DNA of 64,000 bases from a virus (taxonomy: Duplodnaviria; Caudoviricetes), in the IMG/VR virus record IMGVR_UViG_2862465376_000001, positions 1 through 64,000 of that record, one strand, 5' to 3'. The translations under genes were made by a program, and so were the position numbers. The notes under the pieces are model-generated. The model was not told where the DNA came from and did not search any database. It saw nothing but the letters and a program-made list of their open reading frames with translations. Within the stretch, counting starts at the first letter, position 1; each line of letters opens with the position of its first letter. Below are positions 1 through 40,226 of the stretch, one piece after another.

Positions 1-24
1 GACGTCACCACCGAACTGGTCAAC

Positions 25-213
25 ATGACCGTGAGCATCGTGGACGGCTGGTACGCCGACACCCGCATTGACTGGGAGGACGTCTACGACCGGCTGGAGC
101 GCGGCGCCGGACTCGACGACGGCCGCCGCATCGACCTCGGCGAGGACCTCGGCTCGCCCGCCCTCGAAGCCCTCAAGCGCCGCGTGCGCGCCGCCCGCCG
201 CGACCACGGCTGA
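25..213 (+). CDS. Hypothetical protein (may begin upstream of the window)
   Basis: ORF with high GC3 codon usage, open from position 1. Confidence 0.7.
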   Translation: MTVSIVDGWYADTRIDWEDVYDRLERGAGLDDGRRIDLGEDLGSPALEALKRRVRAARRDHG

Positions 214-231
214 TCCCTAGGAGCGCACCAC

Positions 232-648
232 ATGACCTTGTCCACCGCCTACCTCGCCAGCCAGCCCGCCCGGGGCCCGGGACTCGACCAGGCCACCGCC
301 CGCCGCCGCGCCCGGGAACTGGCTGGCATCGCCGCCGCCGCGCACAAGGACAGCAACGGCCGCTGGAACACCGACGGATGGCCGACCGACCAGACCGCGT
401 GGATCGTCACCAGCCTCGCCGGGCGCATCATCCTCGACGACGGTTCGACGCCCGCCGCCGCCGTGCCCGGCTCGTACGTCGCATGGGCCGAGGGTCCGCA
501 GGAACGGACCGAACACGGCTACCTGGCCGCCGAACACGACGGGCAGGCTCTCGTCCTCGGCCTGGACGGCACGTACCGCCAGATGCCCGCCGACATCCCC
601 GAGCCGGAACCCGATCCCGACCGGCCCGGCCACTCCCCGCACCCTTAG
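232..648 (+). CDS. Hypothetical phage protein
   Basis: AGGAG RBS, typical codon usage. Confidence 0.75.
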   Translation: MTLSTAYLASQPARGPGLDQATARRRARELAGIAAAAHKDSNGRWNTDGWPTDQTAWIVTSLAGRIILDDGSTPAAAVPGSYVAWAEGPQERTEHGYLAAEHDGQALVLGLDGTYRQMPADIPEPEPDPDRPGHSPHP

Positions 649-657
649 CCTGGACCC

Positions 658-712
658 GGCCGCGCCCCGCCCGCCGATGCCGGGGCGCGGCCCCTCGACC
701 CGCCACGAGGAG
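658..712 (+). promoter_or_regulatory. Tandem CCGCCA-loop leader hairpins (second occludes RBS)
   Basis: GGCCGCGCCCCG/CGGGGCGCGGCC stem with CCCGCCGA in loop, then CCTCG-ACCCGCCA-CGAGG covering GAGGAG. Confidence 0.75.
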
Positions 713-718
713 ACACCG

Positions 719-1132
719 ATGCCCGACCGCCCTGAACAGCACCTCGCCGACCCCGGCCCGGACGCCTCCGTCCGCATCCTCACCGACGACGGATGGACCA
801 CCGTGCCCCCGACCACGCCTACCGCCACCGTGAAGCTCCCCGGGAGCTTCGTTGACTGGCTCACCACCACGCTCGCCGACCTCGGCCCGGCCCCGTCCCT
901 GGACGACGTCCGTGCCGCCCTGCACCGCGCCCGGCGCACCGAACGCCGGATCGGCTACTTCCTCACCCTCGACGCCACCGCGCCCGTGCTGGAGATGCTC
1001 ACCTCCCTCGCCGCCGACTGCATCAACCTCGGCCGCCCCGTCACCGGCCACAACACCCGCGAGGCCGCCCACCGCGCGCGGCTGCGCCTCATCACCGCCC
1101 GCGCCGCCCTCCACGCCCAGGAGCAGCAGTGA
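719..1132 (+). CDS. Hypothetical phage protein
   Basis: GAGGAG RBS then ATG 719. Confidence 0.75.
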   Translation: MPDRPEQHLADPGPDASVRILTDDGWTTVPPTTPTATVKLPGSFVDWLTTTLADLGPAPSLDDVRAALHRARRTERRIGYFLTLDATAPVLEMLTSLAADCINLGRPVTGHNTREAAHRARLRLITARAALHAQEQQ

Positions 1133-1389
1133 GCCACACCATCACCCCCGGACAGACCTACCGCGCGTGCGCCCCGTACCCGTACGGCCCGACCCGCATC
1201 CGTATCACCGCGTACGAGCCGGGTGCGGCGACCGCCGACGCCGCCGACCGCGACAGCGGCGCCCCGTGCGTCGTCCTCGCCGCCGATCTCCACGCCAGCC
1301 CCGCCCACGACGACGGCACGCCCCGCACCGAGGGCTACGCCCTCACCCGCACCCTGATCGCCCTCGCCGCACCCCAGGAGCGCCCGTGA
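1129..1389 (+). CDS. Hypothetical phage protein
   Basis: GTGA overlap with upstream gene. Confidence 0.7.
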   Translation: MSHTITPGQTYRACAPYPYGPTRIRITAYEPGAATADAADRDSGAPCVVLAADLHASPAHDDGTPRTEGYALTRTLIALAAPQERP

Positions 1390-1667
1390 CCGACGACGAC
1401 GAGACCGTCAACGAACAGGCCGTCGTCGCGTACCTGGCCCGCCTGCCCGACGACCCGGCCGCGCTCGCCGCGAAGGCCGCCGAGCAGGAAGCGCGCCTTG
1501 CCTACTGGCTGGCCCAGGCCCGCACCTACAGCTACCGCATGGACCGCTGTACCACCATCGAGGCCCGGCGCCGCAACGCCCGCCGCGCCGGGGTCAGTCT
1601 TCAGCACGCCCAGACCGCCCGCGAGTGGCTCGAAGCCATCCGCCGCAGGACCGAGGAGCGCTCCTGA
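1386..1667 (+). CDS. Hypothetical phage protein
   Basis: AGGAG RBS, GTGA overlap; 3' part of track ORF 852..1667. Confidence 0.7.
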   Translation: MTDDDETVNEQAVVAYLARLPDDPAALAAKAAEQEARLAYWLAQARTYSYRMDRCTTIEARRRNARRAGVSLQHAQTAREWLEAIRRRTEERS

Positions 1668-2281
1668 TGAGCCGACCGCCAAGCGCCGCCGCCCTGCACC
1701 GCCTCGCCAAGGGAGCGAGGGCGCTGGGGAGCACTGCTGCGCCCGAGCGGTACCGGCAGGCGACCGGACGGCTTCCTGATGCTGATGCGATCATCCGGTG
1801 CAGCCGCGAGGAGCAGCTTTCCGTCTCGGTTCTCGCCCGCGTGTATGAGACCAGCGTGCACGCGGTGTATGCCGTGCTCGATGCGGCCGGGCGGTCTCGC
1901 GAGGAGCTGTGGCGGCGCCCGGTTCAGGAGAGCGGGAGGCGCCCTGCCCCGCCTACTCTGCCCGAGTGGCCGGACGCCGTCCGGGACTACGAGGCGGGGG
2001 ACTCTCCTGGCGTCATCGCTGCCCGCTACGGAATGACCACCCACGCCGTCAACAACTCCGTCAAGGATGCCGTTGGAGGCGCGTGGCGCGAGGCCGCCGA
2101 AGCGCGTGCACTGACCACAGAGCAGAACCGCGAGGCCACCGAGGTCCGCTACCGGGCGCGCACCGGCGCTCTGGACGCCGCCGCCGCCGACCTCGGCGTC
2201 TCCACCGACCAGCTGCGTGCCGTCCTCGACGCGCACGGTCTACTCCTGCATGACCTGCCCACCACCGAGGAGCAACCGTGA
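1667..2281 (+). CDS. Putative DNA-binding protein with repeated HTH-like segments
   Basis: TGATG coupling; segments SVSVLARVYETSVHAVY, SPGVIAARYGMTTHAV, LDAAAADLGVSTDQL. Confidence 0.6.
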   Translation: MSRPPSAAALHRLAKGARALGSTAAPERYRQATGRLPDADAIIRCSREEQLSVSVLARVYETSVHAVYAVLDAAGRSREELWRRPVQESGRRPAPPTLPEWPDAVRDYEAGDSPGVIAARYGMTTHAVNNSVKDAVGGAWREAAEARALTTEQNREATEVRYRARTGALDAAAADLGVSTDQLRAVLDAHGLLLHDLPTTEEQP

Positions 2282-2811
2282 GCACTATCCCCGTCCGCGT
2301 GCCCGCCGACACCATGCCGACTGTCCTGGACGCGCCCCGCGTTCTGCCCGAGGGCCATCCCGGGCGCGGTCTGTCCTGCGCCGCGTGCGTCCTGCCGATC
2401 CTCGGCCGGGCCATGGTCACCGTGTACGTGGGCACCGACCCCGACCAGCGCCGCCCCGGCGGGGCCATGCGCGGCACCGGGGTCCCCGTGCACGCCGACT
2501 GTGCCGGGGTGACCGCCGAGACCGCTTGCGAGCACGTGTGGGTGACCGCCCTCGACGGCGACAACGAAAACGAACCGGCCCGCGACGCCGACGGCCGTAC
2601 CTGGGTGCACTGCGGGGTGTGCGGTACGCCCCGGGGCGCCTCGCCCCGCCTGGTGACTCTCAGTACGCCGTGCGCCCGGCCCGACTGCCACCACCCCTAC
2701 AACTGGCACGTCCCCGGCCCGCGCTGCACCGCCGGGCCGGACAGCGCGCCGTGCCCCTGCGCCGCTTTCCAGGCTCCCGCCGACATTCCCGCAACACCCG
2801 AGGAGCACTGA
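2278..2811 (+). CDS. Cys/His-rich hypothetical protein (possible zinc binding)
   Basis: CAAC, CGVC, CARPDCHH..H, CPC motifs; GTGA overlap. Confidence 0.65.
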   Translation: MSTIPVRVPADTMPTVLDAPRVLPEGHPGRGLSCAACVLPILGRAMVTVYVGTDPDQRRPGGAMRGTGVPVHADCAGVTAETACEHVWVTALDGDNENEPARDADGRTWVHCGVCGTPRGASPRLVTLSTPCARPDCHHPYNWHVPGPRCTAGPDSAPCPCAAFQAPADIPATPEEH

Positions 2812-2815
2812 CGTC

Positions 2816-3223
2816 ATGCCTGTCGACGGGCCGGTGGAGGAGTTGCAGGCGGCGGCTGGTCGGCTGCTGGAGCGGGGGGCGCCGCTGGAGGAGGTGGAGG
2901 CGTTCGCCGCTCTGGTGCGGGCGTTCCCGGCCGGGCCGCTGCCGCTGGTCGCCGATCAGCCTGCGGCCCGGGAGCGGGTGTCGTGTGACCGGTGCGGCGG
3001 GGGTGAGCTGTTTGACCTGCTGGGGCACGATGCGATGGGGCACCGGGTGGCGAACCGCCTTGCGCAGCAGAGGGTTTCGACGCTGGCCGAGCTGACGTCG
3101 CGGTCGGCGGAGTGGCTGCTGGACGAGGCCCGGGTGGGGGCGAAGGGGTTCCAGCGGGTGCGGCTGAAGGTGGGTTTCCAGGCGTGGGACGTGATGGTCG
3201 GGAGGAACGCCGCGACCGGGTAG
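2816..3223 (+). CDS. Protein with RNA polymerase alpha-CTD-like (HhH) domain
   Basis: HRVANRLAQQRVSTLAELTSRSAEWLLDEARVGAKGFQRV matches the alphaCTD pattern R..N.L...gi.T...L......LL....lG.K....i. Confidence 0.6.
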   Translation: MPVDGPVEELQAAAGRLLERGAPLEEVEAFAALVRAFPAGPLPLVADQPAARERVSCDRCGGGELFDLLGHDAMGHRVANRLAQQRVSTLAELTSRSAEWLLDEARVGAKGFQRVRLKVGFQAWDVMVGRNAATG

Positions 3224-3249
3224 ACACGCATATCGATGTGCATTAGTGT
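3221..3249 (+). promoter_or_regulatory. Housekeeping-sigma-type promoter with palindromic spacer
   Basis: TAGACA-17 bp-TAGTGT; spacer contains near-palindrome GCATATCGATGTGC. Confidence 0.6.
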
Positions 3250-3250
3250 G

Positions 3251-3323
3251 AGGGTCCTCGCGCTGCTCCGGCCGCCACGGAGAGCGGGGACCCTTTCTTT
3301 CCGCCTCGACCCGCCACGAGGAG
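3251..3323 (+). promoter_or_regulatory. Leader terminator-like hairpin with GCCGCCA loop plus RBS-occluding CCGCCA hairpin
   Basis: AGGGTCC..CTCCG-GCCGCCA-CGGAG..GGACCCT then TTCTTT; CCTCG-ACCCGCCA-CGAGG at 3304-3321. Confidence 0.8.
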
Positions 3324-3332
3324 AACAAGTCC

Positions 3333-3548
3333 ATGATCCGTCGTACTTTCGGGTGGATACTGCTCGCCCTGCCGCTCGCGACCCCTCTCGTCTGGTTCGT
3401 GCTGGACCGGACGCTGCCAGACACCGTGCAGGCCCGCGCGCTGTGTGACCAGCTCACCTTCGCGTACTTCCTCGGCTGCTTCGTCGTCATCCGGCTGGCC
3501 ATGAGCTTCGTCCCGGTCCGGCGCTCGCAGGACGGGACTGGCCGGTGA
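3333..3548 (+). CDS. Small membrane protein (2 TM)
   Basis: GAGGAG RBS, two hydrophobic segments. Confidence 0.7.
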   Translation: MIRRTFGWILLALPLATPLVWFVLDRTLPDTVQARALCDQLTFAYFLGCFVVIRLAMSFVPVRRSQDGTGR

Positions 3549-3892
3549 ACACTCCGATCACCATGCAGGAGGCCCGGGAGCTGGGCGCGCCGGAGTGCTT
3601 CTCCGAGGAGTTCGCGTTCCTGGAGCGCACCGGGGGGCTGCCGCCGTACGCGGGGCCGGTCGAGCCGGACTGGGGCAGCGACGCCTCCTACCTGTACGAC
3701 GACGAGCCGACCGAGCCGCCCGGCTGGTCGGAGGAGCCCGACCCCGAGTGGGTGCGTGAGCCGGAGCCGGAGCCGTGCCAGGGTCCGGCGCGGACCTTCG
3801 AGTTCCTCGGCATGCCCGAGCGCTGGCGCGCGCACGAGGGCGGCTGCTGGGACCTGCACGTCCCGTCCGAGTCCTGCCCGCCGCCGTTCTGA
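3545..3892 (+). CDS. Acidic Pro-rich hypothetical protein
   Basis: GTGA overlap; EP repeats. Confidence 0.65.
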   Translation: MNTPITMQEARELGAPECFSEEFAFLERTGGLPPYAGPVEPDWGSDASYLYDDEPTEPPGWSEEPDPEWVREPEPEPCQGPARTFEFLGMPERWRAHEGGCWDLHVPSESCPPPF

Positions 3893-4018
3893 TCTTCCTG
3901 AACATCTCGTCCGCCCCTGCCTGTTGTACGGGGCCCCGGGGTCGAACCGGGGGCGGACACCATGCGCACACCGCTACTGTGCGCAGTCGTCACACCACAT
4001 CCCAGGGGGGATCCGACC

Positions 4019-4375
4019 GTGAAGGTCACCAGACTCAGCCGTCTCCTGTTCCCGGCCGCCGCCGTCGGCGCGCTGCTGCTCGCCACGGCGTGCGACAACG
4101 TCACCAAGCCGTCGTCGCAGGGCGCGGCCGTGATGTGCGAGGAGTTCATCAAGAAGGGCGACTACCTGAAGTCGCCCGGCTCGGCGAAGTTCTCCGGTGT
4201 CTCGGACACGACGATCAAGACGCTGCGGGCGAAGAAGCCGTGGAAGTACCGGGTCTCGGGCTGGGTCGACAGCCAGAACTCCTTCGGTGCGCTGGTCCGC
4301 AACAAGTACGTGTGCGAGATCAGCACGAAGGACGCCGACACCTGGCACCTCGACGTCCTGGACCTCGGCAAGTAG
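4019..4375 (+). CDS. Putative lipoprotein
   Basis: Signal peptide with lipobox LATAC; LKSPGSAKFS and VDSQNSFGALVR motifs of a common secreted-protein family. Confidence 0.75.
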   Translation: MKVTRLSRLLFPAAAVGALLLATACDNVTKPSSQGAAVMCEEFIKKGDYLKSPGSAKFSGVSDTTIKTLRAKKPWKYRVSGWVDSQNSFGALVRNKYVCEISTKDADTWHLDVLDLGK

Positions 4376-4421
4376 TCCCTGTCATCTCTCATCAGCTTCA
4401 TCAACACCGTCAAGGACGATT

Positions 4422-4919
4422 ATGAGCAGCATGTACACCCCGCCGCCCGCCGACAAGCCGAAGAAGCCGGTCTACCGGAGGAAGGGCTTCTGGATCGGCA
4501 TCGGCGCCCTCCTCGTGGTCGGCTCGGTCGCGAACGCCGTCAACGGCGGCGACAGCAGCACCGACGCGAAGCCGGAGCCCGCCGTCACCGTCACCAAGAC
4601 GGCCACCCCGGCCGCGCCCGCGACGCCCGCCAAGGAGGAGGAGCCCGCCACTCCGGCCGCCGAGGAGACGGTCGAGGAGGAGACGGCCCCGGCCGCCGAG
4701 CCGGAGCCGGTGCCGGACGTCGTCGGCATGAACCACGCCGACGCGATGACCGTCCTGCACACGGCCGGATTCCTGGTCGACGAGGAGTCCGTCAGCCCCG
4801 GCCACACCTTCATCCTCAACAACAGCAACTGGAAGGTGTGCAGCCAGGACCCGCAGCCCGGCGCCACGGACGTTCTGCGCGTCACGATCAACTCCGTGAA
4901 GCTCGACGAGTCCTGCTGA
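4422..4919 (+). CDS. Membrane-anchored PASTA-domain protein
   Basis: N-terminal TM, Pro/Ala/Glu linker, VPDVVGMNHADA...NWKVCSQDPQPG. Confidence 0.75.
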   Translation: MSSMYTPPPADKPKKPVYRRKGFWIGIGALLVVGSVANAVNGGDSSTDAKPEPAVTVTKTATPAAPATPAKEEEPATPAAEETVEEETAPAAEPEPVPDVVGMNHADAMTVLHTAGFLVDEESVSPGHTFILNNSNWKVCSQDPQPGATDVLRVTINSVKLDESC

Positions 4920-4933
4920 CGCGTTCCTGAACT

Positions 4934-4993
4934 GGCGGCGGCGCCTGTGGGCCGCTCGGCGCCGCCGCCCTCCTTCCTGATCCCGCCAAGGAG
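4934..4993 (+). promoter_or_regulatory. Terminator-like hairpin plus RBS-occluding CCGCCA hairpin
   Basis: 12-bp stem 4934-4969; TTCCT-GATCCCGCCA-AGGAG at 4974-4993. Confidence 0.65.
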
Positions 4994-4997
4994 AACC

Positions 4998-5669
4998 ATG
5001 ACCAGCGAGAACGAGTACGCCATCACCGTCACCCGGGCCGACGAGTCCGTCACCCGAATCGGGCCGATCCCCTACCTGCACGTCGCCGAGGCCATGCACC
5101 GGTACTTCACCGGCGAGGCCCGCACGCACACGGCCGGGGCCGCCGAGGCCCACGTGGAGATCGCCGCCTACGACCCGGACGCCGAGCACCTGCCGCTCGT
5201 CTCCTGCAGCACCGACGCCGTGCTCGTCGCGATGGAGGACCCGGAGCAGAACCCCGACGGCCCGTTCCCGGACCTGTGGTCCCGCTTCCGCGCCCAGCAC
5301 GGGTACGAGGAAGCCGAGAAGGTGTGGAGCACCGCCGTCGCGCTCATCGACCAACCCGCCGACGAGGACGACGGCATGGTCACCGTCCGCGTGCCGCGCG
5401 AGACCGCCGAGGTCCTCGCGGGCATCATCGACGGCCACCTGGAGGAGTACCCCTGCCCCGTCGAGGACATGTGGGGCGTGATCGAGGCCGTCCGGCAGAT
5501 GGACGCCGAGCGCGGCGCGGAAATGTACCGGGAGCACCGGTACCGGGTCAACGGCGGCACGGTGTACGACGTCGTCGACAGGGTCGAGGTGGAGACCGAG
5601 TTCGCCGACAGCGACACCGCCCGCGCCTGGGTGAACAAGCACGGCAAGTCCGCCCCCGGGGAGAAGTGA
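4998..5669 (+). CDS. Hypothetical phage protein
   Basis: AAGGAG RBS, ATG 4998. Confidence 0.8.
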   Translation: MTSENEYAITVTRADESVTRIGPIPYLHVAEAMHRYFTGEARTHTAGAAEAHVEIAAYDPDAEHLPLVSCSTDAVLVAMEDPEQNPDGPFPDLWSRFRAQHGYEEAEKVWSTAVALIDQPADEDDGMVTVRVPRETAEVLAGIIDGHLEEYPCPVEDMWGVIEAVRQMDAERGAEMYREHRYRVNGGTVYDVVDRVEVETEFADSDTARAWVNKHGKSAPGEK

Positions 5670-5671
5670 TC

Positions 5672-6040
5672 ATGGGCTGGAGCACGTTTCCCTCTGTCAA
5701 GGTCGGCGACCCGCTGATCCTGGTCAGGTCGAGCCGTTACCGGGCCGACGAGCGCGTCACTGTCTCCCGGGTCGGCCGGACGTGGCTGTACGTCAAGAAC
5801 GACCAGGGCACCGAGAAGAACGCCCGGTTCTCCAAGACGACCGGCCTGGAGGACACCGGCACCGGGGCCAAGGACGCGTTGCAGACCCAGGAGCAGTACG
5901 ACGAGGCGGCGCAGCGCAGGACGCTGTTCCGCGATCTGCGCGAGGCCGGAATCGAGATCAACAAGTGGTCGGTGCAGGACGACCTGACGACCGAGCAGCT
6001 TCGCCAGCTCCTGGCCGTCGTGAAGCCGGAGGGATCGTGA
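5672..6040 (+). CDS. Hypothetical phage protein (small beta-barrel-like)
   Basis: VKVGDPL...TVSRVGRTWLYV; coupled junction. Confidence 0.7.
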   Translation: MGWSTFPSVKVGDPLILVRSSRYRADERVTVSRVGRTWLYVKNDQGTEKNARFSKTTGLEDTGTGAKDALQTQEQYDEAAQRRTLFRDLREAGIEINKWSVQDDLTTEQLRQLLAVVKPEGS

Positions 6041-6351
6041 AGACCTCCGAGAAGCTCCTGGAGCGCCTGCGCAGTGAGCTGGACCTGGACATCCCGGAGG
6101 GTGCCCGGCTGGAGCGGTCGGCGGGCTCGTACCGGGGCGACAACCGGACGCAGGGCGCGTGGGTGTGGCACGTCGTCTGCGAGGACGGCATCCCTCTGCG
6201 TCAGGACTCCGAGGGGCGGCCGTTGGCGATCGGCTCGCAGTGGACCATGAGCGAGCTGGTGGGGGTGCCGCTGGCCGCGCACCCTGATCTGTACGGCGAC
6301 ATCGTCATCGACCCCGCCGATGAGGCTTATGAGGCGATGCACCGTGGCTGA
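6037..6351 (+). CDS. Hypothetical phage protein
   Basis: GGAGG RBS, GTGA overlap. Confidence 0.7.
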   Translation: MKTSEKLLERLRSELDLDIPEGARLERSAGSYRGDNRTQGAWVWHVVCEDGIPLRQDSEGRPLAIGSQWTMSELVGVPLAAHPDLYGDIVIDPADEAYEAMHRG

Positions 6352-6949
6352 GATCAGGCTGGACGGGCTCCTGAGGGCCATCCTCGACACGGCCGAGAAG
6401 AACCGGCGCCGCAACTCCCCGGAGGCGAAGGCGGCCCGCTCCGCCCGGTCGGCGAAGGCGGCCGAGACGCGCAGGGTCCGGCTGGAGGAGCTGCGGAAGG
6501 CCGAGGAGTGGATCGAGGCCCGCATTCCCGACGGGCCGGTCTGCAACGCCATGAGCATCGTCATGGACGCGCAGGAGGTCTTCTGCGTTCGCCCTCCGCA
6601 CCGGAGCGGCAGCCACGAGGATGTGGACGGAACCACCTGGGACGTACTGGAAGAGGAGTTCGAGGACATGCTGAACGTGACCATCGCTGATCTGAGGAAG
6701 CTGCTGGACGGTCCGAGTGACAGTCCGGTGCTGTACGTCTCCCGGGACGAGGACACCGGGGAGCCGGTCCGCCTCGACGTGTGGGACGACGCCTACGTGC
6801 TGTACGCCGACGTCGTCGCGCGCAAGCACGAGCTGGTCGACGCGCTCGGCGGGCCGGACCACCCGGACGGGATCACCGACGGCGCTCTGAAGAACCTGCT
6901 GCCCCTCTACCAGGGGACCGTGGACGGCATCGTGGGCGGGGAGAAGTGA
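6344..6949 (+). CDS. Hypothetical phage protein
   Basis: Overlapping GTG start, codon usage. Confidence 0.7.
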   Translation: MAEIRLDGLLRAILDTAEKNRRRNSPEAKAARSARSAKAAETRRVRLEELRKAEEWIEARIPDGPVCNAMSIVMDAQEVFCVRPPHRSGSHEDVDGTTWDVLEEEFEDMLNVTIADLRKLLDGPSDSPVLYVSRDEDTGEPVRLDVWDDAYVLYADVVARKHELVDALGGPDHPDGITDGALKNLLPLYQGTVDGIVGGEK

Positions 6950-6951
6950 TC

Positions 6952-7461
6952 ATGAGCGTTGCCGACACGTCGCTCTCACCCGAGCGTGAGGCGTACATCA
7001 AGCAGACCGCCAACGAGAACGCCACGGTGCCCGCCACCTTCGTCAGCGAGCTGCTGTGGGAGATCGAGCGGCTGCGCGTCAACGGCGGCGAGAAGCGCCG
7101 CCTGCTGGCCTGCGGCCTGTGCTTCGAGGAGCACGGCGAGGAGGTCCACCCGCACCCCGAGTGCGGGTGGGGCCGGTACCCCGAGCACGACAAGCTGACT
7201 CTGGTCAAGGACAAGTCGCAGGCCGTGTTCGACTTCCTGGAGTCCGTCGGCGAGAAGGGCATCGCCCTCGGCAGGACCGTGGTGACGCGCGTGGCCGTGT
7301 TCGAGGGGACAGAGGAGTGCACGGCCGTCGAGCCGGTTGAGGAGAGGCGCCTTCAGGAGCTGCTGGCCGGGCACTTCGGGGTCGACCTGGCCAGGCTCGA
7401 CGAGGAGAAGCAGCAGATGCTCGACGACCTGGTCGCCATGAACGCCCCGAAGGGGGGCTGA
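6952..7461 (+). CDS. Hypothetical phage protein (CGLC..HPHPEC motif)
   Basis: Coupled junction, codon usage. Confidence 0.7.
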   Translation: MSVADTSLSPEREAYIKQTANENATVPATFVSELLWEIERLRVNGGEKRRLLACGLCFEEHGEEVHPHPECGWGRYPEHDKLTLVKDKSQAVFDFLESVGEKGIALGRTVVTRVAVFEGTEECTAVEPVEERRLQELLAGHFGVDLARLDEEKQQMLDDLVAMNAPKGG

Positions 7462-7464
7462 GGC

Positions 7465-7749
7465 GTGGGTTCCCTGCTCTCCCGTCTGTTCCGGCGCGGT
7501 CCCCGGCCGTCGCCCGCGCCGGATCTGGCCACGCCGGAGCAGCTGGTCCAGCGCCGACGGGTGGTGGTCTTCCTGCGGAAGAACGGGCGCAGCACGCTGG
7601 AGCAGATCAGCGCAGGTACCGGCATCGCCGTCGAGCGCATGCCGAACGTGCTGGCGTTCATGATGATCGACGGCTACGTGGACCTGGTGGTGCGCTCCCG
7701 GGGAGCTGGTGGTCAGGACCTGTACGAAGCCACGGCAAAGGAGCTGTGA
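7465..7749 (+). CDS. Putative winged-helix DNA-binding protein
   Basis: FLRKNGRSTLEQISAGTGI...VLAFMMIDGYV pattern. Confidence 0.6.
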   Translation: MGSLLSRLFRRGPRPSPAPDLATPEQLVQRRRVVVFLRKNGRSTLEQISAGTGIAVERMPNVLAFMMIDGYVDLVVRSRGAGGQDLYEATAKEL

Positions 7750-7751
7750 TC

Positions 7752-8105
7752 ATGGCCGAGTCGATTCACCCGCTGCCGGTGGGGGCGAAGGTCTTCCACG
7801 CGGGCCAGATGTGGGCGCACAACCTGGTGGGCGGGACGGCGGTGATCGTCGAGGTGGCGGGTCCGTACCGGGACGGGTCGTACGAGTACGTGGTGGACGT
7901 CTGCCGGGAGTTCTCCCGGCGGCCGGGGCCGGACAACCCGATGGACCAGCGGTCGCAGTGGGCGTCGTACATGACGCGGCCCGCGCGCGAGCGGTCGCGG
8001 ATCGAGGACCTCCTGGACCGCTCGCTGCTGATCAGGGACCGGGTGATCCCCACGGACATCGTCGACCGTGACCGGCCCGGGTACGGGGAGGTGCCTGGTG
8101 CCTGA
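7752..8105 (+). CDS. Hypothetical phage protein
   Basis: GGAG RBS, GTGATCATG junction. Confidence 0.7.
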   Translation: MAESIHPLPVGAKVFHAGQMWAHNLVGGTAVIVEVAGPYRDGSYEYVVDVCREFSRRPGPDNPMDQRSQWASYMTRPARERSRIEDLLDRSLLIRDRVIPTDIVDRDRPGYGEVPGA

Positions 8106-8664
8106 GCGGCTGCCGGAGCACGCGGAGCTGTACTTCGTGGAGACGGTCTACTCGGGCACCGTGCACATCGAGGTGCGGGTGCCGGTGTGGTGGCGGGCGA
8201 CCAGCGAGCCTACTGAGACGATCAAGATGGGTGATGGCACTGGTCGTGCGCTGAAGGCGCTGCTGGAAACGCCGACCGTGGTGCAGTGCGGCCGGGAGAC
8301 ATATCCACACGCGGAGACAAAGCACCAGTTCACCACTCGGTTCCATGACGGCCAGCTGTGTGGGCGCTGCTATCGGACGCTGCACTCGGAGGACCAGGCG
8401 CGGGCGTTCGAGCATGAGCAGCCGGGCGATGAGGACGCCGAGTTCGACGAGCTGCTGGAGGTGAGCAGCGTGGGTGCGGCGCAGGTGGAGGCCGCGCGGG
8501 AGGAGGTTCCTCCGGAGGTGCAGGAGGAGCTGCGGACGGCGGCGCGGAAGGCGTCGCTGCGGGTCCGGGGGGCGGAGGCGTTCTTGGGGTTCATGGCGGA
8601 GCGGGATCCGGCGGAGCTGGAGCGGCTGCGTCAGGACGCCTGGGCTAGCACAAAGAGAAAGTAA
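8098..8664 (+). CDS. Hypothetical phage protein (possible zinc binding)
   Basis: GGAGG RBS; H..CG..CGRC. Confidence 0.7.
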   Translation: MPERLPEHAELYFVETVYSGTVHIEVRVPVWWRATSEPTETIKMGDGTGRALKALLETPTVVQCGRETYPHAETKHQFTTRFHDGQLCGRCYRTLHSEDQARAFEHEQPGDEDAEFDELLEVSSVGAAQVEAAREEVPPEVQEELRTAARKASLRVRGAEAFLGFMAERDPAELERLRQDAWASTKRK

Positions 8665-8702
8665 AAAAGCATTGAAATGCTGAACGCCTCCTAGGTTTCT
8701 GG

Positions 8703-8780
8703 CATGATTCGAGCACGGCCGCACCCGACCGCCACGGGTCCGCGTCCGTGCTCGTTCTTTCTTCTGACCGCCACGGGAGG
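8703..8780 (+). promoter_or_regulatory. -10 element, leader terminator with ACCGCCA loop, RBS-occluding ACCGCCA hairpin
   Basis: CATGAT; CGAGCACGG..ACCCG-ACCGCCA-CGGGT..CCGTGCTCG-TTCTTT; CTTCTG-ACCGCCA-CGGGAG (two G-U pairs). Confidence 0.8.
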
Positions 8781-8785
8781 ACGCC

Positions 8786-9064
8786 ATGCCGGAGATGACC
8801 GCGCACGACCTGAAGCTCGTCACGCTGGGCGGCACGATCCGCCTGACCGCCCGGCGCAGCGACGGCTGCACCGTCGAGATCTCCCTGACCGAGGGGGCCG
8901 GGCGGGGCAGCGCGACCCGGGCCGTCACCGACGCCGACGGCCGCCTCATCTCCGCCTCCGTTCGCTCCTGGCCGCTGGCCGGACCCGAGCCGGAGGCGGT
9001 CGCGCGTACGCGGACGGCACTCGACATCGCCCGAAAGGGCCTCGCCGAGGCCTCCGCACGCTAG
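8786..9064 (+). CDS. Hypothetical phage protein
   Basis: GGGAGG RBS. Confidence 0.75.
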   Translation: MPEMTAHDLKLVTLGGTIRLTARRSDGCTVEISLTEGAGRGSATRAVTDADGRLISASVRSWPLAGPEPEAVARTRTALDIARKGLAEASAR

Positions 9065-9069
9065 CCTCA

Positions 9070-9106
9070 GAACGTTCCGCCAGTTCCGCCTCGCCGCCAA
9101 GGAGGC
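9070..9106 (+). promoter_or_regulatory. Tandem CCGCCA-loop hairpins
   Basis: GAAC-GTTCCGCCA-GTTC and GCCTC-GCCGCCAAG-GAGGC covering GGAGG. Confidence 0.7.
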
Positions 9107-9112
9107 AGCCTC

Positions 9113-9472
9113 ATGGCCACTCGCCCCGCGCCCCCGTCCATGCCCGCTCCGATCCGCCAGATGCTGATTCACGCCGACCCGGTCTCCGGGCGGGTCATCG
9201 GCGCGAGCGCCCAGTTCCCGCTGATGATGACCAGGCGGTACGTGACCCAGAGGGGCTCCGGCTACTACCTCACCCGCCACGGCCGCCGGGTGCGCGACCA
9301 AGTGATCGCCACGCGCCGGGAGGTCACCGTCGAGGGCCTGCCGTTCCGGGTGATCGACCACATCACTGAGCTGTACCTGTCCGGCAAGAGCATCCAGGAG
9401 ATCACCCAGCGCACCAGAGCCTCGGAGAAGGCCGTCTTGGCCGCGCTGGAGTTCCGCAAGGTGCTCGCATGA
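9113..9472 (+). CDS. Hypothetical protein with C-terminal HTH-like segment
   Basis: ELYLSGKSIQEITQRTRASEKAV. Confidence 0.65.
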   Translation: MATRPAPPSMPAPIRQMLIHADPVSGRVIGASAQFPLMMTRRYVTQRGSGYYLTRHGRRVRDQVIATRREVTVEGLPFRVIDHITELYLSGKSIQEITQRTRASEKAVLAALEFRKVLA

Positions 9473-9675
9473 ACATCCGGATCGACCTCGACGCCGCCGC
9501 GTTCAACGCCCGGTGGACCGACGAGGAGCCGGACGGCGAGTTCGTCTTCGCCACCCTGAAGGAGGCCAAGGCCCGCGCGCTGAACGGGGCCACCGCCGAA
9601 CGGGACGCCTGGGCCTCCTGCGTCCGCGACATCCGCTCCTTCACCCTGGATGAGGTCTCCCCCGCCTGGGACTGA
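9469..9675 (+). CDS. Hypothetical phage protein
   Basis: ATGA overlap. Confidence 0.7.
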   Translation: MNIRIDLDAAAFNARWTDEEPDGEFVFATLKEAKARALNGATAERDAWASCVRDIRSFTLDEVSPAWD

Positions 9676-9682
9676 CCCTGTC

Positions 9683-9738
9683 CGGCCGGACCGCCAACCG
9701 GCCGCCACCACATCCACCACCTCGACCGCCACGAGGAG
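9683..9738 (+). promoter_or_regulatory. Tandem CCGCCA-loop hairpins
   Basis: CGGCCGG-ACCGCCAA-CCGGCCG and CCTCG-ACCGCCA-CGAGG covering GAGGAG. Confidence 0.8.
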
Positions 9739-9745
9739 AACACCC

Positions 9746-10183
9746 ATGTCCACGTACGCCCTCGCGAAGGCCTCCGCCTACCTCCGCGTCAACCACCGCA
9801 CCAAGCACGCCGAGGTCGTCCACGGCGCCCAGGTGAACTTCGTACTCACCGAGGTCTACGAGGACCAGCAGGTGCGTCAGCAGCCCGGCGGCGGGTTCGT
9901 CGTCACGGCCGACGACTGGACCGTCATCCAGTACACGCCGCTGGCCCCGACCCAGGACCTGCGGCAGCTGGCCGACTCGTACAAGCACTGGACGGCGCCG
10001 GGCAACGGCCAGAAGTTCCACGAGCAGCCGCCCATGGAGGGCAAGGCGCTGCAGGTCCTGCTCCGGCGCCAGCCCGGGACGTTCCACGTCACGCGGCTCG
10101 GCGAGATCGCCCACCTGTACGGCGGGCGGATCCGCAACCAGTACAAGCCGCTGACGGCCGCCGACATGGCGAAGGCCGCCTGA
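9746..10183 (+). CDS. Hypothetical phage protein
   Basis: GAGGAG RBS, ATG 9746. Confidence 0.8.
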   Translation: MSTYALAKASAYLRVNHRTKHAEVVHGAQVNFVLTEVYEDQQVRQQPGGGFVVTADDWTVIQYTPLAPTQDLRQLADSYKHWTAPGNGQKFHEQPPMEGKALQVLLRRQPGTFHVTRLGEIAHLYGGRIRNQYKPLTAADMAKAA

Positions 10184-10187
10184 GAGG

Positions 10188-10601
10188 ATGGGCGGCATGG
10201 CGAAGGACGTGTCTCCCCAGGAGGAGACGACAGGGAAGCTGTCGGCGGCGTACTACGTGTCGGTGTCGGTCGATGAGAAGGGGCAGATCCCCGGGACGGC
10301 CGCCGCGCTGGAGCCGTCGCTGCGCCGGGCTGTCAGAGAGTCGTATCCGGGCGAGGCCGGGTGTGCGGTGCTGCAGGCAGTGATCAACGAGCCGCCGCCC
10401 GCTGGCTCGGGTTACATGGGATGGAACGTGGGCGTGACAGCGGTCATCGACCTGACGGCGTGGCGGCGGGATGTGGGCCCCACGAACGGACAGCATGCGG
10501 CGGCAACGGTGCGGGACCTGCTGGCCGACGCGGACGTGGCAGCAAGCGGGGCGCGGATCGACGCCGTCGAGTTGCAGCTGCTGATGCACGCGCCGTTGTA
10601 G
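10188..10601 (+). CDS. Hypothetical phage protein
   Basis: ORF filling the gap up to the terminator; start may be 10197. Confidence 0.6.
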   Translation: MGGMAKDVSPQEETTGKLSAAYYVSVSVDEKGQIPGTAAALEPSLRRAVRESYPGEAGCAVLQAVINEPPPAGSGYMGWNVGVTAVIDLTAWRRDVGPTNGQHAAATVRDLLADADVAASGARIDAVELQLLMHAPL

Positions 10602-10612
10602 TCCGTACCGTT

Positions 10613-10648
10613 GGAGCCCCGCCCTGCCGTTTCCGGGGGCGGGGCTTC
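10613..10648 (+). terminator. Intrinsic terminator-like hairpin
   Basis: GAGCCCCGCCC / GGGCGGGGCTT inverted repeat after stop. Confidence 0.65.
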
Positions 10649-10726
10649 GCCATGTCGGTCTCTGGCCAGCGGATGACACGCCGTGTCAGTTTTTTGCATA
10701 TGCCTCATCCACCTGTTCGGCGCGTG

Positions 10727-10800
10727 TAGAGTGTGGCGAACAGATCCCGCCAAGTCTGTGCATCTGCTCGTCAGTTCGCCTGTCTCCACCCGCCAGGAGA
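10727..10800 (+). promoter_or_regulatory. -10 element plus tandem CCGCCA-loop leader hairpins
   Basis: TAGAGT; GGCGAAC-AGA-TCCCGCCAAG-TCTGT..GTTCGCC; TCTCC-ACCCGCCA-GGAGA. Confidence 0.75.
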
Positions 10801-10806
10801 TCCACC

Positions 10807-11061
10807 ATGTCTGGACCACGCCCTGCTTCCGAGCGCGCCTCCGTATCCGGGGTCGACATCAGTGCGTGCACCATGCTGCCCGACCAGGCGGCGGAGTGGC
10901 TGGGGTGGAGCACCGAGAAGATGGACGACCTGGTCGAGAAGTCCCGGAAGAACGCCGCGCGGGGCATCGTCGGCCCGCTGGAGCTGATTCCCGGGACGCC
11001 GAGCATCACCCTGACGTCGCTCTTCGCTTACCGCCGCCGCCTGACGGCCTCCACCCTCTGA
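10807..11061 (+). CDS. Small putative DNA-binding (excisionase/HTH-like) protein
   Basis: MLPDQAAEWLGWSTEKM resembles MerR/Xis-type HTH. Confidence 0.55.
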   Translation: MSGPRPASERASVSGVDISACTMLPDQAAEWLGWSTEKMDDLVEKSRKNAARGIVGPLELIPGTPSITLTSLFAYRRRLTASTL

Positions 11062-11073
11062 CTGAACGAAAGG

Positions 11074-11093
11074 GGGGCAACCCGCCATGCCCC
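11074..11093 (+). promoter_or_regulatory. CCGCCA-loop hairpin pairing RBS with start codon
   Basis: GGGGCA-ACCCGCCA-TGCCCC. Confidence 0.7.
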
Positions 11094-11611
11094 ACCCGGA
11101 CATTCACGCAGTCCGCGACAACGTCGGCCTCCGCGACATGGAGGCCCACCGGTTCGTGGCCTGCCTGGCCCTGGACGACTTCTCCAGCCGTCGTCACACC
11201 CGCCTGCAGTGGACCCACCAGAAGGTGGCCCGGACGCTCGGCGTGGTGCCCGCCTTCACGACGCTGGTGACGAACTACCTCGACTACCGCCGTTCCCAGC
11301 GGACCATCGGCCTGACCGACCGTGGCATCCGCGTCTGGGGTGCGCAGGGCGCCCAGCTGTTCCTGTTCGAGGACAACACGCCGCTGGACCTGCTGAACCT
11401 GAACACCAGCGGGGACCGCACCGAGCAGATGGGCGCCGTCCTGCGCGAGGCCCTCCACCGCAAGATCCGCGTCGACCCGGACACCGCCGCCTCGGCCGAG
11501 AAGCTCCTGAGCCGGGCGTGCGGCATGACCTGGGAGACCGTCGTCAACACCTACCAGCGGCAGCTGCGCGCGCAGGCCCCCACCGCCGTGACCGAGGAGA
11601 AGGCAGCATGA
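11087..11611 (+). CDS. Hypothetical phage protein
   Basis: Codon usage, RBS. Confidence 0.8.
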   Translation: MPHPDIHAVRDNVGLRDMEAHRFVACLALDDFSSRRHTRLQWTHQKVARTLGVVPAFTTLVTNYLDYRRSQRTIGLTDRGIRVWGAQGAQLFLFEDNTPLDLLNLNTSGDRTEQMGAVLREALHRKIRVDPDTAASAEKLLSRACGMTWETVVNTYQRQLRAQAPTAVTEEKAA

Positions 11612-12192
11612 GCAGCAAGAATGTGGGCCACGTGTCGCTCGTCTACTACCCGCACGGGCAGTTCTTCCCGCAGGAGCGGGTGTTCGACGCGATGACCGAC
11701 GACGATCTGGCGTTCCTCGTCGCCGGGCTGTACGCCCGCCGGATGCGCACCTCGCAGCGTCACATGGACCTGCAGCAGCTGAAGAAGACCCGCCAGGGGC
11801 AGATCGCCTGGTACGCGGACCGGATGATCGAGGCCCTGTACGACGGGCTCGGCGGCTGGCGGCGGCTGCTGCCGATGCGGGTCCGGGTACGGATCGTTCA
11901 GGCGCAGATGGACTACCTGCGCGACCTCACGGTCGTGTGGACCGACGAGCTGGTCGCCCTGCACGCCGAGGCCACTCGCGCCGGTGGAGGCGTTCCGCTG
12001 GTTTCGCGGCGGATCAGCTCGGCGCCGGAGAACGGGCCCCGGGTCCGCTGCGGCGGCACTCCCACCTCGACGTGCACGGCGGACATGCTCCTCGGCGAAC
12101 CGCTGCCCGAGGGCTGGACCATGGGGGTCGAGGACGTCCCGCACTGCCCCGAGCACCCGGTCGTCGCGCTGGTGAAGGAGACCGTGGCATGA
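11608..12192 (+). CDS. Hypothetical phage protein
   Basis: ATGA overlap, GAGGAG RBS. Confidence 0.75.
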   Translation: MSSKNVGHVSLVYYPHGQFFPQERVFDAMTDDDLAFLVAGLYARRMRTSQRHMDLQQLKKTRQGQIAWYADRMIEALYDGLGGWRRLLPMRVRVRIVQAQMDYLRDLTVVWTDELVALHAEATRAGGGVPLVSRRISSAPENGPRVRCGGTPTSTCTADMLLGEPLPEGWTMGVEDVPHCPEHPVVALVKETVA

Positions 12193-12386
12193 CGCGGTTC
12201 CTGATAGGTCTCGTCGCCGGTGCCGCCTGCGGCGGCATCGCCTACGCCGCCTCGGACAACACCCTGCTGGCCGTCATCGTCGGGGCCGGGGTGGCGCTCG
12301 CGGTGTGGGCCCGGCTCTTCGACCTGATCGCGGACGGCATCGGCGCGGCCATGATCTGGGCGATGAACGGCGGGGAGTCCGACTGA
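12189..12386 (+). CDS. Small membrane protein
   Basis: AAGGAG RBS; MTRFLIGLVAGAAC... hydrophobic. Confidence 0.7.
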   Translation: MTRFLIGLVAGAACGGIAYAASDNTLLAVIVGAGVALAVWARLFDLIADGIGAAMIWAMNGGESD

Positions 12387-12562
12387 TGTGGCGCACCGCA
12401 GGGGGCGCGGCGGCCGGAGTCGCCGCTGGCGCCGCCACCGACTGGTACACCGGCTTCCTCGACAAGGGGATCTTCGTCGGAGGGTTCGTCGCCGTCACGG
12501 TGTGGTTCTGGCCATGGGGGCTGCCCGCGCGCCTGGCCCAGACAGGAGGGCGTCGTGGCTGA
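12386..12562 (+). CDS. Small membrane protein
   Basis: TGATG coupling; hydrophobic. Confidence 0.6.
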   Translation: MWRTAGGAAAGVAAGAATDWYTGFLDKGIFVGGFVAVTVWFWPWGLPARLAQTGGRRG

Positions 12563-13037
12563 CGAGTTGACGGCGGTGTTCTTCTCGCAGGGCGGCCGGA
12601 AGTACCACAGGACGCAGGACTGCCACGCGCTGGAGTCGGCGCAGGTCCTGTGGGACGGCGACAGCCCCGACGACTACCCGCTCGGCGCCCCGTGGTTCGG
12701 CGGGTACGCCGTCCGGCGGGCGCCCGAGCACTACGCGTACTACCTGTCCGGGAAGCGGCCGTGCCTGGTGTGCCTGCCCGGCCGGGGCGTGCCGTTCGCG
12801 TCGGCCGCCGACTTCGGACACCGGCCGGTGTCCGGGTTCATCGACGGCCGGGCGATCGGCCTGATCTGCAGGCGGTGCCGGATCGTGCACCGCAACACCA
12901 CGATCGTCCTCGACGGCGACCTGTGGACGATGGGGAGCGTCAGCACGGTGAGATGGCCGTGCGTGTCCGCGATCGTCCTCGGCGTCGCGGACCAGGAGGC
13001 GTCCTCGCTTCCCCGGCCGCTGCCGAGGGCGGCGTAG
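12555..13037 (+). CDS. Hypothetical protein with Ada-like metal-binding motif
   Basis: GRKYHRTQDC...RPCLVC; second CRRC..WPC. Confidence 0.65.
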   Translation: MADELTAVFFSQGGRKYHRTQDCHALESAQVLWDGDSPDDYPLGAPWFGGYAVRRAPEHYAYYLSGKRPCLVCLPGRGVPFASAADFGHRPVSGFIDGRAIGLICRRCRIVHRNTTIVLDGDLWTMGSVSTVRWPCVSAIVLGVADQEASSLPRPLPRAA

Positions 13038-13047
13038 GACCGGGTGG

Positions 13048-13082
13048 CTGTCCGATGGCTGATCGGCGGGCCTATGGGGTGG
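13048..13082 (+). promoter_or_regulatory. Late-type bipartite promoter motif
   Basis: CTGTC-N20-TATGGGGTGG upstream of dcd. Confidence 0.6.
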
Positions 13083-13099
13083 AGAAAGGAGCCCACCAC

Positions 13100-13645
13100 A
13101 TGCTCGCCGACTGGCAGATCACGGAACGCATCACCCAAGGGGACCTGGACATCTCCCCGTTCGACCCGGAGCGGGTCCAGCCCGCTTCGGTCGACCTGCT
13201 GCTCGACCAGTACGTACGCACCCTCGCCGGACCGAAGCGGGCCGAGATCGACGTCGCGGACGTTCAGCCCCGGCACACGACGCTCGGCCAGATCGGCGAG
13301 GACGGCTGGCTGCTGGAGCCGGGGGACTTCCTCCTGGCCTGCACCGTCGAGCGCGTGACCCTGCCGCCGGACCTGGCGGCCCGGGTCGAAGGCAAGAGTT
13401 CCCTGGGCCGCCTGGGGCTCACCGTCCACGTGACGGCGGGCTTCATCGACCCGGGGTTCACCGGACAGATCACGCTGGAGATCGCCAATCTCTCGGGCAA
13501 GCCGCTCCGGCTGCGGAAGCTGATGCCGATCGCCCAGCTGTGCCTGATCCCGATGTCGGCCGCCCCCTCGCGGCCGTACGGGAGCGCGGGCAACCACTAC
13601 CAGGGCCAGTACGGCCCGACGGAGTCTCGCTACCAGATGCGCTGA
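13100..13645 (+). CDS. dcd: dCTP deaminase
   Basis: QPASVDL, ARVEGKSSLGRLGL, TAGFIDPGFTGQITLE, YQGQYGPTESR. Confidence 0.95.
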   Translation: MLADWQITERITQGDLDISPFDPERVQPASVDLLLDQYVRTLAGPKRAEIDVADVQPRHTTLGQIGEDGWLLEPGDFLLACTVERVTLPPDLAARVEGKSSLGRLGLTVHVTAGFIDPGFTGQITLEIANLSGKPLRLRKLMPIAQLCLIPMSAAPSRPYGSAGNHYQGQYGPTESRYQMR

Positions 13646-13718
13646 TTCTGTGCTTTGGCGGTGGTTGTCAGTGACTCCCGGCACAATCCGATTACCGCCA
13701 CAGCAAAGGGAGAACGCC

Positions 13719-34894: not shown

Positions 34895-34909
34895 ACCGCC
34901 AACTGCAGC
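34888..34909 (+). promoter_or_regulatory. CCGCCA-loop hairpin at the holin stop codon
   Basis: GCTGTAG-ACCGCCAA-CTGCAGC (one G-U pair). Confidence 0.6.
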
Positions 34910-40144: not shown

Positions 40145-40189
40145 GGCGTGGCTGGGGATACCCCAGCCCTTCCCTTCTGGCATGATCGT

Positions 40190-40226
40190 CGAAGGCCCTC
40201 CCCATGTCGTCTGGGGAGGGCCTTCG
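40190..40226 (+). terminator. Terminator hairpin after capsid gene
   Basis: CGAAGGCCCTCCCCA / TGGGGAGGGCCTTCG. Confidence 0.75.

Follow-up and report, generated by a model that had tools for sequence, protein, structure and literature searches.

A CCGCCA-loop hairpin element in early and middle gene leaders of a Streptomyces phage-plasmid family

Leader hairpins of the window and its relatives

The window analysed here is the 64,000-nt stretch at positions 1 to 64,000 of the IMG/VR virus record IMGVR_UViG_2862465376_000001, a DNA of 69% G+C whose plus strand carries nearly all of the genes. Small early-type genes fill positions 1 to ~13,700 and virion genes fill the remainder, where a weak tail-sheath match (below the Pfam cut-off) and an NlpC/P60 protein are found; an HK97-fold capsid protein and a baseplate J protein were found in a relative. 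The element in question is the hexamer CCGCCA, which recurs on the transcribed strand of the early-gene leaders, often in the loop of a small hairpin and close to the Shine-Dalgarno (SD) sequence or the start codon.

The relatives used for comparison include pRLB1-9.1, the 154-kb circular plasmid of an isolated strain, Streptomyces sp. RLB1-9. Alongside virion genes it encodes ParA, a ParB-family protein, DnaB and the DNA polymerase III alpha subunit, and this combination identifies it as a phage-plasmid. A 156-kb IMG/VR contig, G001, is 88-92% identical to the window. A 53-kb related contig (G002) and at least three more lineages (L024, L028 and L031) complete the set, and neither genome contigs nor metagenome contigs, nor a megablast search against phages, yielded further relatives. 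Early proteins of the window and pRLB1-9.1 share only 35-60% identity, and the early genes are shuffled from lineage to lineage. Enrichment statistics were calculated for four elements (the window, G001, G002 and pRLB1-9.1), and hairpins of orthologous genes were compared across seven lineages.

The initial annotation of the window described eight hairpins with CCGCCA in the loop and an SD or start codon buried in the stem. Reading of the sequence and minimum free energy (MFE) folds recover all eight on the plus strand, with the same stems. The hairpin at 693-710 has a 5-bp stem around the loop ACCCGCCA, and its 3′ arm forms part of the SD for the ATG at 719. At 3304-3321, ahead of the ATG at 3333, folding and match searching identify the same 20-nt cassette, letter for letter and present in all relatives; a near-identical copy lacking one C precedes the ATG at 9746. 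Exact matches to the cassette are limited to nine IMG/VR contigs, apparently all from the same phage-plasmid family, three of which were recognised only through the cassette match or through a homologue of the ProQ-C-like protein described below. Further SD hairpins fold at 4970-4993 (ATG 4998; CCGCCA in the loop, retained in G001), 8759-8781 (ATG 8786; orthologue stems of 7 bp with altered letters), 9088-9106 (ATG 9113; with a C-G stem pair that is replaced in other lineages), 9720-9736 (ATG 9746) and 10782-10801 (ATG 10807). The last of the eight, at 11072-11094, reaches into its gene: the final A of the CCGCCA loop is the A of the ATG at 11087, and the 3′ arm is coding.

A second hairpin had been proposed upstream in most of these leaders, and this part of the description stands with corrections. 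Upstream hairpins are present at 3250-3295, 8706-8757, 9683-9704 and 10740-10760. The one at 9683-9704 has 7 bp and the loop ACCGCCAA (z-score -3.2 for 9680-9748). The promoter-proximal hairpin at 10740-10760 folds with CCGCCA in its loop, and the MFE of the whole leader favours an alternative fold. A further upstream hairpin, at 9070-9086, is weak, with 4 bp around CCGCCA and a different 4-bp stem in orthologues. Two variant loops had also been suggested: a strong hairpin with the loop CCGCCG does occur at 658-692 in the leader of gene 719-1132 (MFE fold, z-score -4.1 for 655-721). The variant proposed at 4946 finds no support, the loop of the hairpin at 4934-4969 being unrelated to the motif. 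The arrangement of two loops per leader holds for a subset of leaders.

Distribution, enrichment and covariation of the CCGCCA loop

The eight leaders are genuine, yet they understate the scope of the element, which marks about 50 of ~180 genes (a CCGCCA copy within 60 nt of the start) over an arm of about 100 kb. Some 75 copies lie in this 100-kb early/middle arm and the late arm is nearly devoid of them; in G001 the copies span 10-110 kb. Relative to starts, two positions stand out: a direct CCGCC-ATG fusion (8-9 per full genome) and a zone 10-25 nt upstream, immediately 5′ of the SD. Almost no copies fall 0-9 nt upstream of starts, and some lie more than 50 nt upstream. Each full genome contains about 25-30 adjacent pairs of copies, many of them 17-55 nt apart.

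That the hexamer alone is common, as the initial annotation cautioned, is borne out by 65 plus-strand and 60 minus-strand copies in the window. Within the 7.0 kb of non-coding plus strand, 25 copies are found where the coding rate predicts 5.8 (Poisson P 3e-9), and the non-coding minus strand is at background, with no excess. The corresponding non-coding counts are 69 versus 18 in G001, 24 versus 5 in G002 and 67 versus 14 in pRLB1-9.1, an approximately 4-fold excess confined to the transcribed strand, with P values from 3e-9 to 4e-24 across the four elements. In an unbiased scan of leader hexamers against an order-2 model built from these same leaders, CCGCCA belongs to the highest-scoring motifs of each element (z 6-11). 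Orientation is equally skewed: sense copies outnumber others with respect to the neighbouring gene by 24:7, 77:11 (G001), 27:2 and 74:5 in the four elements, and by 178 to 18 when three lineages are pooled. As a single control, the Streptomyces phage phiC31 contains no CCGCCA in 4.3 kb of non-coding plus strand.

Placement in loops is specific to the hexamer. Copies were counted as hairpin-borne when a stem of 5 bp or more enclosed them with no more than 3 additional loop bases on either side. By this measure 41% of the 200 leader copies qualify, compared with 14% of sense and 12% of antisense coding copies (Fisher P about 1e-12 to 1e-14). For twelve further hexamers rich in C, scored in these leaders too, the proportion enclosed is 2-24%, and the two highest, CCCGCC and CGCCAC, overlap CCGCCA itself. 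A gapless alignment of 122 distinct leader sites, drawn from the window, pRLB1-9.1 and G002 without selection for stems, pairs in its symmetric register in 50.1% of cells versus 36.1 +/- 1.5% after shuffling; none of 500 shuffles reaches the observed value, slid registers give 31-40%, and the covariation score is 0.344 versus 0.170. Enrichment over background is found, together with a preference for loops, and the leader-hairpin pattern is confirmed as real and beyond chance.

A covariance model, another check that had been proposed, was less informative. Built from 12 hairpins of pRLB1-9.1 and run unfiltered over the window, it recovers the leader hairpins, only at E values of 0.1-8 and mixed with chance hits in coding DNA, and was rejected as a detector of single sites because a 20-nt hairpin carries too little information. 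Since single sites are not significant, the case rests on the aggregate evidence.

Orthologous leaders provide a direct view of how the element evolves, and the compensatory changes sought there are found in the seven-lineage comparison. Upstream of gene 9746, four or five unrelated stems of 5-8 bp surround the same loop; the stem of the 9683-9704 hairpin is wholly different in pRLB1-9.1, G002, L028 and L031 and the loop is retained. The SD hairpin of gene 9113 has its C-G pair replaced by A-T in four lineages, and orthologues of the promoter-proximal hairpin of gene 10807 exchange A-T for G-C and G-T for G-C. The SD hairpin of gene 9746 has orthologues with a longer, bulged stem that tracks a changed SD, and the G001 orthologue of the 3250-3295 hairpin keeps its inner 5-bp stem and loop. 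Before gene 8786, the long terminator-like hairpin at 8706-8757, with the apical loop ACCGCCA, is conserved in all seven lineages: its long outer stem and U-rich tail are constant and its inner stem is altered in matched pairs. In two lineages its loop reads CCTCCA, so the loop is not absolutely fixed. From copy to copy, stem arms are unrelated and the loop is invariant, and the bases flanking it use all four letters, which leaves a conserved core of 6 nt.

These features bear out the earlier proposal that the element is an RNA structure rather than a duplex-DNA operator. Variable but compensated stems, a 6-nt core, a variable distance to the promoter and positions tied to the SD or AUG argue for RNA, as do the constant loop and the strand lock, and action at the RNA level is supported by the sequence comparison; extruded single-stranded DNA may be an alternative. 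The motif, its strand, its placement, its hairpin context, the covariation of its stems and its restriction to the early/middle arm are shown by the sequences.

In coding DNA, a separate asymmetry is seen in G001 and pRLB1-9.1, where CCGCCA is about twice as frequent in sense as in antisense orientation (~1.5 versus 0.5-0.7 per kb); the coding DNA of the window has no such bias. Codon usage or internal sites could be responsible.

Promoters, terminators and the late arm

Some copies of the element lie close behind promoter-like sites. On the plus strand at 3222-3250 the window contains TAGACA, a 17-nt spacer with an imperfect palindrome, and TAGTGT, the same architecture as in ~20 leaders of pRLB1-9.1 (L005-L007), where TAGACA or TTGACA is followed by a spacer with GCAAC-N4/5-GTTGC, then TAGAGT and then GGG. 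The design is shared and the palindrome differs. In G001, leaders are enriched for the right half of the window palindrome fused to the -10 box (hexamer TGCATT/CATTAG). From its sequence, the spacer palindrome is probably the DNA operator of a phage-plasmid repressor. A -10-like box, TAGAGT, at 10726-10731 on the plus strand lies 8 nt ahead of the 10740-10760 hairpin and is conserved in all lineages. CCGCCA itself sits 7-22 nt downstream of the -10 box, within the transcript; it is exact after about 10 of the 20 pRLB1-9.1 promoters and is replaced by CCGCCG or CCGCCT after several others. A scan of the plus strand with the promoter consensus gave no match, and most CCGCCA copies have no recognisable promoter.

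In the window only two hairpins, 3250-3295 and 8706-8757, have a U-rich run behind them, which extends to 3300 in the first case. Both are stable, and both had been described as attenuators. Hairpin and U-rich tail are present at each, and the attenuation itself is uncertain, as a terminator of upstream transcription can be read equally well. At 3250 the stem, which carries CCGCCA within its apical loop, begins directly after the -10 box, so that a transcript started there would probably lack part of the 5′ arm and escape termination; by analogy with the promoter early stem-loop (PeSL) cassettes of T4-type phages, the hairpin may instead stop read-through from upstream. A different sequence, TGGCA(T/C)GAT, stands directly before strong hairpins or a candidate small-RNA locus (window 8697-8709 and 40177-40190; L016:8640-8901, minus strand) and may represent a further promoter class.

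The late arm is marked differently. Its motif, CAAGGGG(T/C)GA, lies 15-35 nt upstream of late-gene starts, often with TGCTGTC ~17-20 nt before it; in the window it occupies the leaders of the starts at 15563, 21042, 27386, 28352, 28720, 34592, 42448, 44761, 49275, 50922, 52225 and 59779. Late-arm leaders of G001, at 110-156 kb, are marked by CAAGGGGTGA, again preceded by TGCTGTC. This motif is probably the promoter for a phage-specified sigma factor or activator. A protein with a sigma-70 region 4 is encoded by pRLB1-9.1.

CCGCCA is also found at a few other places in the window. Two CCGCCA-loop hairpins lie at 34850-34908 (plus strand), at the 3′ end of the late-region gene 34592-34894 and upstream of a strong terminator, and are kept in pRLB1-9.1 with other stem letters; two additional copies precede the ATG at 47668. 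Among the neighbouring early genes of the window are those for a PASTA-domain protein (4422-4919) and dCTP deaminase (13100-13645), and early/middle genes of G001 encode an Arr-type rifampin ADP-ribosyltransferase domain, a JmjC/cupin protein, RNase H and WhiB.

Candidate readers and rival explanations

The reading ranked first, to which we assign a probability of about 0.4, is that CCGCCA is read by a diffusible RNA-binding protein with sequence specificity, which would control ~50 leaders. What would count is the unpaired hexamer, usually presented by a loop of 6-8 nt whose stem can have any sequence and otherwise left single-stranded just 5′ of the SD or fused to the AUG. A 6-nt core with unconstrained flanks fits a protein better than long antisense pairing. 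The protein would probably be encoded by the phage-plasmid itself. At sites that adjoin the SD or AUG, or share a hairpin with either, binding would set translation initiation; at promoter-proximal or terminator-like hairpins it would affect the stability of the RNA 5′ end or termination. In this way ~50 genes could switch together in the fashion of CsrA or T4 RegA. We infer the existence of the factor, its protein nature and the direction of regulation. In broader terms, it is tentatively suggested that a global post-transcriptional regulator of the phage-plasmid, whether protein or small RNA and unlike CsrA, Hfq or the ProQ FinO domain, times the early/middle programme.

The search for such a protein points to one gene. 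Among 30 proteins of the window and 115 early/middle proteins of G001, the sole RNA-associated domain detected by Pfam is the RNA-chaperone-related PF24203 (Phage_ProQ_C_like, E 9e-22; phrog_3032), in the 122-aa product of the early gene at 5672-6040 on the plus strand. Every lineage sequenced across the region has the gene, and the predicted structure of its product combines a small beta-barrel with three helices (predicted local distance difference test, pLDDT, 81). In pRLB1-9.1 (L003:3977-4624) the domain and a homologue of the window gene 4998-5669, corresponding to its C-terminal half, form a single protein; the occurrence of the two parts separately in the window (4998-6040) and as a fusion in the plasmid suggests that they work together. 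The ProQ-C-like protein is a weak candidate for the trans factor.

RNA partners were considered alongside, since the complement of the motif also occurs. The leader of gene 13719 contains at 13656-13701 (plus strand) an upstream stretch with TGGCGG that pairs with the SD-proximal CCGCCA in a long-range helix; in the consensus fold of seven sequences the pairs are kept in nearly all, most of them never varying. Its apical loop is CCGCCA or CCTCCA in four of the seven lineages, and L031 has a perfect 10-bp complement. A second site lies in a conserved non-coding island at 40230-40460, after the terminator of the capsid gene, in which an invariant 17-nt hairpin (GGTGA/TCACC) is directly preceded by TGGCGG (40363-40372, read on the plus strand); this is a candidate antisense partner or an ordinary minus-strand CCGCCA copy, and consensus folding is compatible with either strand. 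In G001 the island has two TGGCGG copies 19 nt apart. Outside the window, G001 and pRLB1-9.1 have a gap of 260-310 nt between two large early genes (L016:8640-8901, minus strand; L006:8472-8783). It holds a conserved TGGCGGG, a 12-nt block that is likewise conserved, and a terminator showing a compensatory change, and is a candidate small RNA. The dinucleotide AG 3′ of CCGCCA is commonest in the window and G001, where the G001 island reads CTTGGCGG, and rarer in pRLB1-9.1 and G002, whose islands read TCTGGCGG.

A further candidate, from its sequence a late small RNA, is the nearly invariant stretch of ~85 nt at 40494-40582 between two late-type promoters. It folds into three hairpins (z -3.5), and a G-C pair of its terminator stem has changed to A-U in compensatory fashion. 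It carries CCGCCA itself, and its first loop would pair with the motif only via G-U wobble. Its second loop was considered as an anti-SD for GGAGAAC sites and rejected, as GGAGAAC lies within 25 nt of only 4-10 starts per element. An AdpA box, complementarity to 16S rRNA and mimicry of tRNA 3′ ends were considered and dropped for want of support.

Several results weigh against a protein reader. About half of the leader copies have no clear hairpin. The Pfam scan offers no factor beyond the weak PF24203 candidate, whose structural model has no PDB match reaching E 0.1. RNA binding by ProQ depends mainly on a domain other than the ProQ-C-like one (PMC9977716), and Mycobacterium phage Typha has a ProQ-C-like homologue and no enrichment of the motif in 45.7 kb of its genome. 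The conserved TGGCGG sites leave room for an RNA partner. Finally, the gene calls are our own approximation.

Of the alternatives, a small antisense RNA bearing UGGCGG(G) comes next and is rather unlikely. It would target the loops by kissing or linear pairing and so occlude the SD or alter termination, and three findings speak for it: the conservation of plus-strand TGGCGG at three non-coding places, the cis helix of the 13719 leader, in which such pairing is used, and the AG flank, whose frequency parallels the reading of the islands. The complementarity of the core is only 6 nt, however, with the loop flanks otherwise free, the island after the capsid gene may, read on the minus strand, be an ordinary motif copy beside a hairpin, and the late small-RNA candidate carries CCGCCA itself and would need wobble pairing. 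Somewhat less probable again is the absence of any dedicated regulator, with the hairpins serving in cis as 5′-end stabilisers, SD masks or operon punctuation and the loop merely suiting a general host ribonuclease or the ribosome. Many copies do sit at predicted transcript 5′ ends, 7-15 nt past a -10 box, the SD arms of the stems would by themselves mask ribosome binding, and the pair of hairpins at 34850-34908 precedes a terminator at a gene 3′ end; such roles nevertheless leave the invariant 6-nt loop on ~75 stems and the unstructured AUG-fused copies unexplained, and phiC31, which also infects Streptomyces, is devoid of the motif in its non-coding plus strand, the one control made.

An asymmetric protein site acting in DNA, as a duplex or as extruded single strands in the manner of stoperators, is improbable. 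The copies are asymmetric, intergenic, orientation-locked and numerous, and many are just downstream of promoters, all of which recalls stoperators, but a conserved core of 6 bp is short, compensated inverted repeats of arbitrary sequence are unexpected around a duplex site, the distance to the -10 box drifts between 7 and 22 nt, many copies abut an SD or AUG far from any promoter, and the promoter spacers already have a palindrome of their own. Slightly more doubtful still is the possibility that repetition reflects recombination-spread modules of promoter, stem-loop and SD, similar to PeSLs, rather than selection for binding. The repeated 20-nt cassette with its near copy at 9746 and its presence in nine related contigs, the promoter-hairpin composites at 3222-3295 and 10726-10760, and the shuffling of early genes would all follow from such mobility; most copies, on the other hand, share only the 6-nt loop on unrelated stems, the opposite of copying, and orthologous sites diverge in the stem and not in the loop. 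Chance, or the composition of C-rich leaders at 69% G+C, is hardly credible: it would suit the frequency of the hexamer on both strands and the lack of significance of single hairpins under the covariance model, yet the non-coding excess (P 3e-9 to 4e-24), the leader scores, the 178:18 strand ratio, the hexamer-specific loop placement and a pairing level above all 500 shuffles contradict it.

Comparison with known systems

Over the whole window, Rfam 15 gives no match at the gathering score, and only chance-level matches (E >0.1) appear in 1-14000 and 40100-40700; no description of a CCGCCA-loop leader element was found in the literature. Should the loop serve as a docking site, one post-transcriptional switch would govern about a quarter of the genes in a temperate element of 155 kb, a layer of control not described for actinophages or phage-plasmids. 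For Streptomyces engineering, the element could also provide a portable RNA tag of only ~20 nt, read by a presumably orthogonal factor, and in related genomes the motif is an aid to placing gene starts and to telling the early/middle arm from the late one.

CsrA/RsmA offers a parallel for a protein reader. This dimeric protein recognises GGA in the loops of small hairpins with arbitrary stems, several per leader with one over the SD, and blocks ribosomes. A short loop-borne motif, several sites per leader including one at the SD, and many target mRNAs are shared with the present element; the motif differs (GGA there, CCGCCA here), and no CsrA domain (PF02599) occurs in the 30 window or 115 G001 early/middle proteins. 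To our knowledge, Actinobacteria lack both CsrA and Hfq. Lambda N reads the loop of the boxB hairpin, and T4 RegA and RegB act at the initiation regions of many early mRNAs. Homologues of N, RegA or RegB were not detected by Pfam in the scanned proteins. A nut site consists of boxA and a boxB with a purine-rich pentaloop, present once or twice per genome, in contrast to ~75 copies of a C-rich 6-8-nt loop, and RegB cuts GGAG within the SD itself.

For an RNA partner, the natural comparison is with P1 C4 and P4 CI, antisense RNAs of temperate phage-plasmids that use short complementarities, one covering a ribosome-binding site, and lie in the same transcript as their target. The cis arrangement of the 13719 leader resembles them. 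They control one operon, whereas ~50 genes are concerned here, the complementarity is ~6-10 nt, and the antisense RNA is so far only a candidate. At the DNA level, the stoperators of Cluster A phages are 13-14-bp asymmetric duplex sites of the immunity repressor, many in number and orientation-locked. They have no covarying flanking stems, in contrast to the 6-nt core with covarying stems described here, which coexists with a separate palindrome in promoter spacers.

Two systems share the genomic setting of the element more closely. The start-associated sequences (SAS) of Cluster K temperate actinophages are dispersed, orientation-locked repeats at the starts of some non-structural genes; about half have an upstream inverted repeat, and their function is unknown, a host or phage RNA or protein partner having been proposed (Pope et al. 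2011, PMC3203893). Restriction to non-structural genes and a near-single orientation (77 sense versus 11 other in G001) are common to both. An SAS, however, is a 13-bp block that includes the SD and occurs 11-19 times per genome, whereas the present core has 6 nt, excludes the SD, varies in position and reaches ~75 copies. The extended form (ESAS) has conserved, imperfect 17-bp arms around a variable spacer, the reverse of the variable arms and constant loop found here. SAS/ESAS is conceptually the closest known system, with its pattern of conservation inverted.

The PeSL cassettes of the T4-type phages RB49 and phi1 are modules of an early sigma-70-like promoter, a stem-loop and an SD; the stem-loop can terminate upstream transcription, and the cassettes have been proposed as recombination linkers (Arbiol et al. 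2010, PMC2839356). Here a promoter-like site joined to a stem-loop is seen at 3222-3295, at 10726-10760 and at about 10 of the 20 pRLB1-9.1 promoters; such modules, with the SD of the next gene, recall the PeSL layout and are likewise concentrated in the non-structural, plastic part of the genome. PeSL stems, though, are conserved as a G-run and a C-run and no motif is defined for their loops, in contrast to the arbitrary stems of the present hairpins, most of which have no promoter. The CCGCCA-loop element fits under none of SAS/ESAS, PeSL or CsrA and is a real, conserved RNA-level leader element of one Streptomyces phage-plasmid family.

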